Shown piece after piece: positions 5,287 through 57,449 of a stretch of DNA of 64,000 nucleotides. The stretch's first letter is position 1. Each line of letters opens with the position of its first letter. The translations under genes were made by a program, and so were the position numbers. The stretch lies in assembly GCA_951406725.2 (NCBI GenBank), contig OX597818.1, forward strand, positions 54,250,001 to 54,314,000, in the 5' to 3' direction. This stretch comes from Octopus vulgaris. Its lineage: Eukaryota. The notes beneath the pieces were generated by a model. The model did not search any database. It was given only the letters and a program-made list of their open reading frames with translations, and had not been told where the DNA came from.

Positions 5287-5948
5287 ATGGACTACACAGA
5301 TGCACAACGTGTTGAAGGCATATTTTTTAAAGAGAGAAACCCCGATTCACAACCTGAAGATGTTGAAATGGTGTCTGTTGAAGGAAGTAGCGAATCTGTA
5401 AATACCAGATATAACATGGATCGTAACAAAGAAAACCTGGCTTTGATAATCAACAATGAAAGTTTCGACGAATCGACTGGTTTCTCTAACCGACAAGGAT
5501 CCGACAGAGATGCATCAGCAATTAAACACACATTGGAGTCGTTGCATTTTAAGGTAATTAACCGCAAGAATTTATCAGTGAGAGATATGACGCAAAAGTT
5601 TACGGATATATCCACGATGGACCATACGAAGCATAACTGCTTCGTTTGTGAAAGCAATAACAAGATTTATGGCACTGATGGAGAAGTAAATCTTACGAGT
5701 TAGTGCAGATGTTGCTTCCTGATAGATGCCCAGGTTTAATAGGTAAGCCAAAACTATTCTTCGTACAAGCCTGTCGGGGAAGGAAAGAGGACAGCGGTGC
5801 ACCTATGCACGATGCCGGCGATTTTAGAGTGAAATATCAAAATGTCACATCTCACAAAGTACCACTTGGGGCCGACATGCTTCTGGCTTATTCCACTGTC
5901 CCTGGATTTTACTCCTATAGACGTTCTACAACTGGATCTTGGTTCATT
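5287..5948 (+). pseudogene. Caspase-3/7-like copy 1, pseudogene
   Basis: ACCATGG start, MDYTDAQRVEG, QACRG present. An 18-bp deletion at ~5650 removes VILTHG (catalytic His), there is a 1-bp deletion at ~5696 (cttacgag vs cttaacgag), and homology stops after GSWFI at 5948. Confidence 0.93.
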
Positions 5949-6039
5949 TGGTAAACGTTATATATATATATATATATATATATATATATATATATATATA
6001 TATATATATATATATATATATATATATACATATATATAT

Positions 6040-6590
6040 CCAACGAAGCTACACGAAGAAGATAGCCTCTGTGCAGCATATAAGCTACTGGGAAAGACTC
6101 AAGAGATTAAAACTCTATTCCTTGGAGCATAGGCGAGAAAGATATGCCATAATATATATCTGGAAGATCCTGGAAGGACTTGTCCCAAACTTTGGCATCG
6201 AGAGTCACACAAATGCCAGAACCGGGCGCCACTGCGTGGTACCAAGGACTCCAAATTTGTCATCAAGATGTAGGACAAGATACTGTGATAGCCTGGGCTT
6301 CAGAGGCCCACAGCTCTTCAATATCCTCCCGAAGAACCTAAGGGACCTGCATGGTGTAGATGCGGATGTCTTTAAAGTAGGACTGGATCTCCTCCTGTCA
6401 GGTGTCCCGGATAAACCAACTTCACGGCAGGAGGTGCAGATGAGGGCAGCTGCATCGAACTCTCTCATGCACCAAATGGCAGTTGCTAAAAAGCATTCGT
6501 GAGGTAAAATCATGTAGCAAACCAAATGGCGGTGCCCCAGCATGGCCACAGCTCATGAGCTGAAACTGGGAAAATCAAAATCAAAATCAT
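6040..6590 (+). mobile_element. CR1/L2-type LINE 3' fragment
   Basis: YWERLKRLKLYSLEHRRERYAIIYIWKILEGLVPN is typical of the C-terminus of CR1-group ORF2; 3' tail ends in (AAAATC)n; related end at ~35665-35825 (-). Confidence 0.8.
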
Positions 6591-6611
6591 ATATATGTAT
6601 ATATATATATA

Positions 6612-6960
6612 CTAGCAGAATTGCCCGGCGTTGCTCGGGGCTGAATTGCTTGAAAGTACTGTTAATGATTGCACTGAATTATGATGATTATTCAGGCAAA
6701 TATTGATATAAGTTTACGGTGGGAGATAAGGACTTAACGATCAAATGTGTGCCATTGCATTGTTTTGGAGGAACCAAATTTCTGATGAGCATTATAGGGG
6801 CACCAACTTTAAGTTTGAGAAAGTGTGGTGGTCGTCCGGGGTGCTCAAAGGAATTGAGTACCTCTATTGGATAGTTGATGAGATCAGAAGGCGTCTTAAC
6901 AATGGTACAAATGGAATCGATGGCAATATCACCATTTTCATCCCCTGGTATTTTGCCTTC
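6612..6960 (-). mobile_element. Helitron 3' end with Pif1-like helicase fragment
   Basis: YPIEVLNSFEHPGRPPHFLKLKVGAPIMLIRNLVPPKQCNGTHLIVK matches the Helitron RepHel helicase motif; terminal hairpin CCCGAGCAACGCCGGG followed by CTAG|T on the minus strand. Confidence 0.85.
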
Positions 6961-7368
6961 GCCAAGTGCAAGGAGGGCGATGCTGGTAATGATCACACTC
7001 GAATAGTGCCTCCTACATGCCACCGGCATGGAGGCCAGATAGCCGCTCTGGCAACAATCACTCTCGGATGGTGCTCTTAATACCCTACTAGCACGGGGGC
7101 TTGAGTGCCAGTAATGCGACGCTGGTAACGATCATGCTTGAATGGTGCATTTTAAGTGTCACTGGCAAGGAAGCCAGTTAGCCGCTCTGTCAATGATCAC
7201 ACTCGTATGGTGCTCTTTGCAACCCGCTAGCATGGACGCCAGTCATCGAATTTGATTTTGATTTTTGATTTTTGAGGAAATCACTACTATTCCCTTCAAA
7301 CTTTGCTTTTGTGACCATTACATTTCAGATAGATTCAGCGCTGAGTTGCTGGATCAGAAATATTGTTA

Positions 7369-54095: not shown

Positions 54096-54291
54096 TATAC
54101 ATATATTTGTGTGTGTGTGTATATGTATATGTATATATATATATATATATATATATATATATATATAGGTGTACTTTGTTAATTACAAACATGCATGCTG
54201 ACAATTCTACATGTCAGTGTGCATAATTAGTGTATACACACGCACACGTGCATGTGTATGTGAATGTAATTGTGTAAATTAAATACATGTA

Positions 54292-55075
54292 TCATCACCG
54301 TCGTCGTTTAACGTCCGCTTTCCATGCTAGCATGGGTTGGACGATTTGACTGAGGTCTGGCGAACCAGATGGCTGCACCAGGCTCCAATCTTGATCTGGC
54401 AGAGTTTCTATAGCTGGATGTCCTTCCTAACGCCAACCACTCCAAGAGTGTTGTGGGTGCTTTTACGTGCCACCGGCACGAGGGCCAGTCAGGCAGTACT
54501 GGCAATGTCCACACCCAAATGGTGCTTTTTATGTGCCACCTGCACAGGAGCCAGTCCAGCAGCACTGACAACGACCTCGCTCGAATATTTTTTCACGTGC
54601 CACCAGCACAACTGCCTGTAAGGCGACGCAGGTAATGATCACGCTCGAATGGTGCTTTTTACATGCCATCGGCACGAAGGCCAGCTTGTTGCTATGGCAA
54701 TGATCACGCTCGTATGGTACTCTTAGCGCTCCACTAGTACAGATGCCAGTCATTGAATTTGATTTCGATTTCACTTACCTCAACAAATCTTCGCAGGCAG
54801 AGTTTAGTGTCCAATGAAGGAAAGCCATGCATGAGTGGACTGGTTACACCCCTGGTATAGGCCACAAGGTTATAGTCTCACTTGCGCTTGCCGGGTTTTC
54901 TCAAACACAGCATATTTCCAGAGGTCCCAGTCACTAGTCATTGTCTTGGTGAGGCCCAGTGTTTGAAGGTCAGGTTTCACCACCTCATCCCAAGTCTTCT
55001 TGAGTCTACATCTTCCACGGGTTCCCTCAACTGCTAGGGTGTGGCACTTTTTCACACAGTTATCCACATTCATTC
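54292..55075 (-). mobile_element. RTE-clade LINE 3' end with long 3' UTR
   Basis: VEGTRGRCRLKKTWDEVVKPDLQTLGL...W C-terminus, then ggttggcgttaggaaggac...(GAT) tail. Confidence 0.75.
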
Positions 55076-56451
55076 AGACAGACAGACACACATTCTCAGT
55101 TTTATACATATACATATATATATATATATATATATATATATTTAAAATATAAGTTAGAGTTAAAAACCACTATTATGCAACTCAAACATTGATAGACATA
55201 AACCAATACATAAATAATATATATATATATATATATATATATATATATATATATATATATATATATATATATATATATATATATATATATATATATATAT
55301 ATAATATATATATATATATATATATATATATATATATATATATATATATATATATATATATATATAATTCAAGTAATATGTCTATATATATAAAATATTA
55401 CATCAACTTATATATATATATATGATACTTAAAGAAGATATATATATATATATATAGTTCAGTATGTGGCAAAGTAATATATATATATATATATATATAT
55501 ATATATATATATATATATATATATATATATATATATATATATATATATATATATAAAGAGTTAATCCAAACAAGAAAACACAAAAAACACAGCAACGCGA
55601 GGACGTGGAACAAATAAAGTATTATTGGACGCTCAGGAAAGAAGGAAAGGAGGGTTTAACGTTTCGAGCGGAGCTCTTCATCGGAAATGAAGGAGAAGGA
55701 AAGATCCCGAGAAGGGAAGACAGAGGAAAAAAAAATTGCTGGCGGTGCTCACGAGGTCACACGTTGAAAGCATATAAAATACATACATATATATATATAT
55801 ATATATTCATATAATATATATATATTATTCCCTCCTTAGCGAAGGCGGCGGTAGTAAAGAGACAAGGTGTTGATGGTTCCAATGTATTTTATTATAAGTC
55901 CACTAGATATCAATTAAACACGAAAATAATAGTTTTGCCATTAATATTAAGAAATAAAACCAATTTATTAATGTTATCACTTTTACAATATTTTAATTAT
56001 TTCAACGAAAATGTTAGTGAAGAGCAAAAAAATTAGGAAAGGAATTTTTCTTAGTAAATCTTATAACGCAGAATGTAAGTCTCTGATCCGGGTGTGTGAT
56101 ACGCTGTACTACTTTTTTCTGTTGTACTTGAACTTTGTATATTCATGTTTAGAACCAGTCTTCATTGCTCAACAGGGGGATGGTAACAAGTTCAGAAAGG
56201 ACCATATACATTACTCACTGTCATACAGTTTTGAAAGAAATTTAAAGTATATAAAAATTTTTATAATGAAACGAAATAACATGTTCTCATGACAGAATAG
56301 AAAATGGAGTAGAAATTTCAAGGACAGACACACACAGACGTAGTCAAATCAAACAGTCAAGCAATAAAAATATCAATAACAAACATGCGGACGAGCACAG
56401 GAAATGTATTTGATGATCGTTTAAAAAAAAAAAAAAAAAAAGAGGGCTTTT

Positions 56452-56479
56452 GACGTTTCAAGCGTAACACTTTCGTCAG
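56452..56479 (-). ncRNA. Minimal hammerhead-ribozyme-like motif (Penelope type)
   Basis: Minus strand CUGACGA-AAGUG-UUA-CGCUU-GAAAC-GUC; stems I and III are minimal. Confidence 0.45.
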
Positions 56480-56564
56480 AAAGTAAAACGGAAAAATTCA
56501 GAGAAGGAAAAAGATCACCAACAGCATGTAGGAGAGAGGGGAAAACGATTGAAAATTGAAAATT

Positions 56565-57449
56565 TTACTTGTAAAAGTGTAGTTCTTTTGTTAACATGCT
56601 CACTATGGAAGGAACTTGTTTCATTTTATTCATAGACGAATGGCTGGAATTAGACTCATATTCATAAGCAACATTGCGATTTACCAAAAGCAATAATCGT
56701 TGCAGTTCAAGTTGGTCTCCGTCTTTTTCCAAAATGTGAGCCAACGATTGAATAAACCACGATCCATTAGTGGAATTTCTCCAGGCGTAAAATCCAGGGA
56801 CAGTGGAATAAGCTAGAAGAACGTCTGCCCAAAGTGGTACTTTGTGAGATGTGACATTTTGATATTTCCCTCTTACAAAAGCATCGGCATCGTGCATAAC
56901 TGCACCTCTGTCCAGTTTCGTTCCCCGACAAGCTTGTATGAAGAATAGTTTTGGCTTACCTATTAAACCTGGGCATCTATCAGGAAGCAACATCTGCACT
57001 AACTCGTTAAGATTTACTTTTCTATCAGTGCCATAAACCTGGTTATCGTCTTCGCCGTGAGTTAATAAAACACAAACGAAGCAGTTATGCTTCGTATGGT
57101 CCATCGTGGATATATCCGTGAAGATTTGCGTCATCGCTTTCACTGATAAATTCTTGCGGTCGATCACCTTAAAATGCAATGACTCCAAAGCCTTTTTAAT
57201 TGCTGATGCATCTCTGTCGGATCCTTGTCGTCCAGACATTTCAGTCGATTTGTCAAACTTTTCGTTATTTATTATTAAAGCCAGATTCTTTTTTTCGCGA
57301 TCCATGTCATATCTGGCATTTACAGATTCGCTACATTCCTCAACATTTACAGATTCGCTACATTCCATTTCAACATCTTGAGGTCCTGGATCGGGGTTTC
57401 TCTCTGTAAACCATATACCATCAATAGGTTTTGCATCTGTGTAATCCAT
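56565..57449 (-). CDS. Caspase-3/7-like effector caspase copy 5 (294 aa, intronless, canonical WRN class, most divergent N-terminus)
   Basis: Intact ORF: MDYTDAKPI, LTHG, FIQACRGTKLD, YAWRNSTNGSWF, VSMLTKELHF. Confidence 0.95.
   Translation of the reverse strand: MDYTDAKPIDGIWFTERNPDPGPQDVEMECSESVNVEECSESVNARYDMDREKKNLALIINNEKFDKSTEMSGRQGSDRDASAIKKALESLHFKVIDRKNLSVKAMTQIFTDISTMDHTKHNCFVCVLLTHGEDDNQVYGTDRKVNLNELVQMLLPDRCPGLIGKPKLFFIQACRGTKLDRGAVMHDADAFVRGKYQNVTSHKVPLWADVLLAYSTVPGFYAWRNSTNGSWFIQSLAHILEKDGDQLELQRLLLLVNRNVAYEYESNSSHSSMNKMKQVPSIVSMLTKELHFYK

Follow-up and report, generated by a model that had tools for sequence, protein, structure and literature searches.

An Octopus-restricted branch with a predicted change of substrate pocket in a single-exon caspase-3/7-like array of Octopus vulgaris

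Can one cluster of effector caspases hold proteases with more than one cleavage preference? The question is raised by a stretch of the Octopus vulgaris genome of 64,000 nucleotides (C5:54,250,001-54,314,000; hereafter the window, within which positions are counted from the first letter). An original prediction, made from this sequence, had described five intronless caspase-3/7-like copies in two specificity classes, here called WRN and YRR after the residues at positions 206 to 208 of loop L3 (caspase-3 numbering). The five single-frame copies are indeed there, and "intronless" holds for the coding sequence, to which the evidence is limited. The division of the system into five copies of two classes does not stand, since the window lies in the middle of an array of 22 single-exon caspase-3/7-like copies that includes WRN, WRS, WKN, YEN and YRR types. 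Within this array we lean toward the reading that the YRR branch is an active Asp-cutting protease, in which changes in loops L2, L3 and L4 would shift P2/P4 choice away from strict DEVD, a reading drawn from sequence comparison and predicted folds.

Groove residues that set the YRR proteins apart

All five window copies are caspase-3/7-like. Copies 2, 4 and 5 each consist of one uninterrupted reading frame that encodes a complete Peptidase_C14 domain (PF00656; E-values of 2e-61, 2e-62 and 7e-60, respectively). The prodomain is short (about 47-52 amino acids), is disordered in models and matches neither CARD, DED nor any other Pfam domain. The same three copies are already present in NCBI/UniRef as exact sequences, their nearest named relatives being octopus "caspase-3-like" proteins. 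Vertebrate caspase-3 and -7 (group II; PDB 5i9b, 1f1j and 2j30) have the same short prodomain, QACRG motif, S1 residues (R64/Q161/R207), catalytic dyad (H121/C163) and fold, whereas the octopus genes are about 42-44% identical to them, have a single coding exon and number 22 copies. The His/Cys dyad and the S1 residues Arg64, Gln161 and Arg207 are present in copies 2, 4 and 5, and copy 3 retains them in its downstream frame.

Copies 4 (46733..47599, minus strand; 288 amino acids) and 5 (56565..57449, minus strand; 294 amino acids, with the variant YAWRN) are intact WRN-type genes that match caspase-3 and -7 additionally in W206, N208 and L4 length. They carry the QACRGTKLD, Y-S/A-W-R-N and 17-residue YES..KQVP motifs, as had been described, and copy 4 is 93.8% identical to O. 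bimaculoides P0125. Copies 1 to 3 keep neither W206, N208 nor the full-length L4; they read QACRGRKED and YSYRR(S/R)TTGSWF, again as described. YRR copies differ from caspase-3 and -7 by Y206, R208, E or R168, H249 and an L4 five residues shorter. In copy 2 (15248..16099, minus strand; 283 amino acids), the sole intact YRR gene in the assembly, these changes can be followed loop by loop, all on the minus strand. Loop L2, QACRGRKED (15575..15601), has T166->R and L168->E; loop L3, YSYRRRTTGSWF (15422..15457), has W206->Y and N208->R and retains R207; and loop L4, YEHSSTKMKQVP (15293..15328), has S249->H and no equivalent of caspase-3 residues 252-256. Copy 3 has the corresponding short loop, YEHSCTKMKQVP. 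The accompanying ANMLMK motif is found in copies 2 and 3, although we rejected it as a class marker: SMLTK stands in its place in the O. bimaculoides YRR protein, and SNMLTK in WRN copies of Argonauta.

Intact YRR proteins also occur in O. bimaculoides (P0004) and O. sinensis (P0001 and P0002), and each of them lacks the five residues that are deleted in copy 2. Compared over 247 columns with 28 non-YRR array members, and with caspase-3 numbering taken from pangolin P0074 and PDB 5i9b, the YRR proteins are marked by this deletion and by nine diagnostic substitutions. Eight of the nine lie in L2 (T166->R/K, L168->E/R), L3 (W206->Y, N208->R and position 211) or L4 (S249->H and positions 250 and 257). 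They alter four of seven S2/S4 positions, as these are given in PMC6874516 and PMC7586219, and none of the five S1 or catalytic positions (Fisher p=3e-5). A null model weighted by column variability gave four pocket changes in 0 of 200,000 draws, and nine other groupings of the array had no pocket change, apart from Argonauta with one. Because the motif was known before the test was set up, these p-values are descriptive. In the nomenclature of the specificity literature, the YRR proteins have Glu or Arg at CP-122, Tyr at CP-160, Arg at CP-162 and Glu at GP9-01. The net charge of their loops is +3/+4 versus +1, and they keep the DxxD sites of both prodomain (DYTD/DYAD) and linker (DSGD/DAGD).

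The catalytic and S1 residues are retained in 4/4 intact YRR proteins (copy 2, P0001, P0002 and P0004) from three species, and the sequences thus support the predicted remodelling of the P2/P4 pocket around an intact S1 in these proteins. The claim that the class as a whole keeps dyad and S1 arginines extends to the downstream frame of copy 3 and fails for copy 1, where the His is deleted. Structural models, one of the checks proposed at the outset for copies 2 and 4, returned a caspase fold. The AlphaFold model of copy 2 (pLDDT 78, pTM 0.77) has caspase-3/7 chains as best matches (E about 1e-30, TM 0.93-0.94 to target), and that of copy 4 reached a pLDDT of 79.7.

Distribution, ancestry and proposed function

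The YRR combination appears to be an Octopus invention. Outside octopus, none of 144 domains has it (a search with 7,872 matches, whose 150 best representatives supplied these domains in 130 cases), nor does any of 90 domains taken from 89 of the 94 non-octopus matches of a protein search; a region search with 26 matches added no further YRR protein to those three. Tyr or Phe at position 206 is common enough (40/144 domains), whereas Arg or Lys directly after the S1 Arg is rare (2/131 such domains, HRR and WRK), and among the 90 non-octopus domains W206 is present in 88 and N208 in 89. These counts support the predicted lineage specificity, the YRR branch being restricted to Octopus among the proteins searched. 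A tandem caspase of a mayfly (XP_059489241, P0129) has one domain with HRR and a 10-residue L4, as in YRR; however, it is a two-domain insect protein with QACKG and 37% identity, and is apparently an independent parallel. The likeness to caspase-8 (group III), which does have Tyr at the W206 position (SYRN) as had been stated, and whose L4 is similarly short (9 residues versus 10 in YRR), is convergence and not membership, judging by the other sequence features: caspase-8 has DEDs, QACQG and Asn208, whereas the octopus proteins have QACRG and Arg208, lack a DED and are nested in an octopus caspase-3/7-like clade.

In a catalytic-domain tree of 59 rows (divergent rows L067-L070 excluded), the array and three Argonauta proteins, all of WRN type, form one clade (100/99) beside other cephalopod-type sequences, and vertebrate CASP3 and CASP7 group apart. 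The four YRR proteins join O. bimaculoides P0016, a YTR protein with a long L4, at 92/96, and in a tree of the C-terminal half, which like the other half-gene trees is a quick tree, they do so at an SH-aLRT of 98. The mollusc phylogeny that had been proposed as a check bears out the array as a clade with Argonauta and the YRR grouping, except that the grouping is lost for P0004 once the loops are removed. The p20 and p10 cores are, to judge from a pN/pS-based omega of about 0.4 (about 0.3-0.5), under purifying selection. Site-wise dN/dS, another proposed check, is distrusted because of gene conversion in 24 of 190 copy pairs, and an L4 omega of 3.2, which adjoins an indel, was not used.

How could such changes act? 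In effector caspases, CP-122/158/160 make up S2, and Asn at CP-162 (N208) hydrogen-bonds the P4 Asp together with the L4 backbone; three changes are enough for an ancestral effector to exchange Asp for Val as its P4 choice (PMC6874516). The same study provides a precedent in caspase-6, an effector paralog retuned at CP-122, CP-160 and CP-162, the same three positions as in YRR. Caspase-6 has His/His/Glu there, with Val at GP9-01 in L4 and a hydrophobic P4, whereas YRR has Glu-or-Arg/Tyr/Arg; because the residues differ, a VEID preference is not predicted for YRR. L2 and L4 are divergent specificity loops (PMC12052993), and caspase-3 N208S cleaves GSDME more weakly, while caspase-7 S234N gains GSDME cleavage (PMC10942788). 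A search of the octopus genome for gasdermin gave no match, as did its control, which likewise matched nowhere. The immune or non-apoptotic substrates suggested in the original prediction found no support in the analysis.

By analogy with other effectors, we propose that the YRR zymogen would be processed at Asp residues of the linker (VMHD/DSGD) and that the enzyme would presumably still cleave after Asp. With the hydrogen bond of N208 and the L4 wall gone, Trp->Tyr and a charged residue 168, S2 and S4 would be more open, and the more basic groove may favor acidic P4/P5 residues or protein-specific substrates; Arg208 speaks against a hydrophobic P4, and such contacts are the more likely outcome. 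The many WRN copies and a canonical, spliced caspase-3/7 gene on C7 (SWRN, 15-residue L4) could supply ordinary executioner activity, leaving the YRR branch free to diverge. If true, nature would here have rebuilt the caspase-3 groove at the positions that made caspase-6, with another chemical outcome (Arg at S4). Copy 4, 81% identical and in the same array, is a canonical control, and the enzyme pair could show how L2, L3 and L4 set P2/P4 choice. The "caspase-3" used as a marker of octopus welfare and senescence may then pool some 15 intact genes whose pockets are of several types.

The genes themselves are already listed in print. An effector caspase table (Supplementary Data 1 of PMC11543851) has 12, 26 and 25 octopus sequences, among them P0002/P0001 (XP_036359066/7) and a 283-residue entry from O. 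vulgaris, all of which are given a p10 of 90 residues versus 95. Effector caspases have expanded in tandem in other molluscs, as in the octopus array ("caspase-3/6/7-like" genes in PMC11543851 and PMC10967218, the latter on mussel), and a possible executioner expansion is reported in squid (PMC9389742). In their available portions, the two former papers are concerned with genes of gastropods and bivalves, including a long linker and expression, and do not discuss octopus pocket residues, gene structure, inversion or conversion. Caspase-3-like proteins have been detected in O. vulgaris mucus (PMC11431876), and four caspase-3 and four caspase-7 transcripts in its hemocyte transcriptome (PMC4199593), in both cases with the array copy unspecified. 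Our literature search, in which few subscription journals were covered, found no paper on the array's pocket variants. The YRR branch is a real, lineage-restricted variant, centred on the pocket, within an expansion of an ordinary kind.

Alternative explanations for the YRR branch

Several observations weigh against an active protease of shifted preference. The finding is weaker than it first read, with three of the four YRR copies in the assembly (k04 and copies 1, 2 and 3) broken, and a function for copies 1 and 3 is not supported. No candidate emerged when short or partial YRR proteins were sought, and no Logan protein was of the YRR class. P0004 leaves the YRR group when the loops are removed, so the shared origin rests on the loop block. 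YRR proteins are 78% identical to their O. bimaculoides counterpart versus 94% for copy 4, a faster divergence that fits relaxed as well as positive selection. The structure predictions, made for ligand-free monomers, yield no pocket geometry. Finally, Arg208 might equally preserve an Asp-P4 preference, and a single N->E change at the N208 site had little effect on selectivity (PMC6874516).

The YRR branch could instead be a decaying or weakly active offshoot, either under relaxed selection in a redundant array or acting as a decoy of low activity in dimers with WRN copies. The excess of broken copies (3/4 versus 4/18 among the others) and the faster divergence are in its favor, the sister protein P0016 has lost the S1 Arg, the shorter L4 may weaken the loop bundle, and YEN and no-Cys variants occur in the array too. 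We nevertheless judge it unlikely: the changes cluster at pocket positions instead of scattering, the catalytic and S1 residues are untouched in every intact YRR protein, core omega is low, and two of the three YRR lesions are single A-run slips in copies that are otherwise near-identical. Copy 3 (29090..29939, minus strand) is whole apart from one such frameshift, overlooked in the original prediction, in which an A-run near codon 47 has lost 2 nt (A8 at 29793-29800 versus A10) and the frame ends after 55 codons; O. sinensis P0002 is its intact counterpart. It differs from k04 by five substitutions, with one A-run slip apiece at different sites, and the two are therefore young nulls or assembly errors. 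Copy 1 (5287..5954, plus strand) is a YRR-type pseudogene. An 18-nt deletion (~5648) takes out ILTHG including the catalytic His, a 1-nt deletion (~5695) shifts the frame, and homology runs to 5948, with a stop at 5952-5954 and the 3' end missing.

The A-run is an observation in its own right. A coding A10 run is confined to YRR copies (L017 and L027; A8 in copy 3) and is a slippage hot spot or a sequencing error; in copy 2 it lies at 15951..15960 (minus strand), is slippage-prone and is the longest run among the 22 copies. At window 29824 (minus strand) an ATG of the post-frameshift frame is in frame with the entire catalytic domain of copy 3 (244 amino acids). Rescue by this internal ATG was considered and is unlikely, as four ATGs lie upstream.

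Alternatively, DxxD-type substrates may be unchanged and control altered, the loops having changed in escape from groove-binding inhibitors such as host IAP linkers, serpins or pathogen inhibitors. The XIAP linker contacts a patch formed by W206 and F256. IAP-caspase-7 complexes exist (1kmc), and Tyr206 with a 10-residue L4 is closer to caspase-8 (9 residues) than to caspase-3 (15). The changes at N208 and L168, however, would be expected to affect peptide choice as well, and inhibitor escape is compatible with a shift in P2/P4 preference rather than exclusive of it; as the whole explanation we consider it quite unlikely.

It is very unlikely that the changes are neutral tuning, with Arg208 taking the place of Asn as partner of the P4 Asp in an ordinary DEVDase that has a different expression pattern. 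A basic S4 residue could bind Asp, the prodomain and linker DxxD sites are retained, and aromatic substitution at 206 is widespread; yet four pocket positions and the L4 wall are altered jointly, and a basic residue in the place of N208 is as rare as noted above. An assembly artefact, with a second haplotype placed inverted and homopolymer errors creating frameshifts, would suit the 94-99% arm identity, the mirror pairs 5-16 substitutions apart and the two YRR frameshifts in A-runs, which may be sequencing errors, but is scarcely credible given that mirror partners k02 and k10 have separate O. sinensis counterparts (P0009 and P0007), that multi-kb indels and conversion tracts separate the arms, and that the YRR class, being found in three species, is not an artefact.

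The array, its inverted duplication and neighboring elements

When the 424 kb surrounding the window were searched at the nucleotide level, the 22 caspase copies fell at C5 54.146-54.521 Mb (375 kb), and a search of the 2.8-Gb genome gave 75 caspase matches. Fifteen of the 22 copies are intact and seven broken; the intact ones comprise nine WRN, two WRS, two WKN, one YEN and one YRR. The array is a birth-and-death array with gene conversion. The first 120 nt are 99-100% identical among copies 1, 2 and 4, across the two supposed classes, copies 2 and 3 have a common tract, and nearest neighbors switch along each gene. In a conversion test of 20 copies (copy 1 and k21 excluded as truncated), the 24 affected pairs had an identity run matched by at most 1 in 1000 permutations. 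Further single-exon caspase clusters lie on C19, C26 and C28, apart from the spliced gene on C7. The array may be of retroposed origin.

An inverted duplication of ~170 kb surrounds the window centre (C5 about 54.169-54.346 Mb), with a mean identity of 95.6% between arms across 62 kb of aligned blocks. The left arm, ~87 kb long, reaches ~80.8 kb left of the window start and has its inner end at 2059..5948, within copy 1, which is truncated because the arm stops there. A spacer of 9.5 kb (5949..15418) contains microsatellites and pieces of transposons as well as the 3' end of copy 2, and the right arm (15419..64000 in the window) extends to about window position 95,700. Mirror pairs are copy 1/copy 2, k04 (L017)/copy 3, k03 (L003)/copy 4 and k02/k10; copy 5 has no positional mirror, and k02 is a chimera of copy 5 (5') and k10 (3').

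Taken further, these features could describe a diversified executioner-type caspase arsenal in one recombining array, in which the YRR cassette would have a specificity that no studied caspase has shown (an open, polar S2, a basic S4 and resistance to groove-binding inhibitors), would be swapped by conversion onto different N-terminal halves and would be toggled between individuals by slippage of the coding A10 run, like immune-type gene clusters. We regard this extension as improbable.

Other array members are unusual in their own ways. The intact YEN copy k11 (L013, C5:54350687-54351553) has S1 Arg207 -> Glu, has lost its N-terminal DxxD site (DYTY) and is 99.7% identical to O. sinensis P0013; it is a candidate pseudo-caspase or changed-P1 enzyme by sequence, and arguably as odd as YRR. 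In the intact WKN copies k19 (L011) and k15 (L012) the S1 Arg207 is Lys, k20 (L016) reads QACRVKKMD, and no-Cys variants occur as well. Beyond the array, xRD-type L3 motifs occur among the other single-exon clusters (C19/C28, L026 and L028-L030; C26, L070; C3, L023; and L067 and L068). The catalytic Cys or His is missing in L029, L067 and L068, and L023 has SACRG with WRT.

Mobile elements and repeats fill part of the window. An intact hAT-family transposase frame of 632 amino acids (zf-C2H2_12, Dimer_Tnp_hAT) lies at 38664-40562 (plus strand), and LINE-type endonuclease/reverse transcriptase pieces lie at 60694-63231 (plus), 24691-25798 (minus) and 5921-6502 (plus), the last of which adjoins the break of copy 1, has no Pfam match and is LINE-like by eye. 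A Pif1 2B-domain fragment at 6688-7131 (minus strand) is probably Helitron-derived. A 28-bp satellite is found upstream of copies 1 and 2 (2336-4686 and 16725-19997), and a short interstitial TTAGGG-like repeat at 22620-22874.

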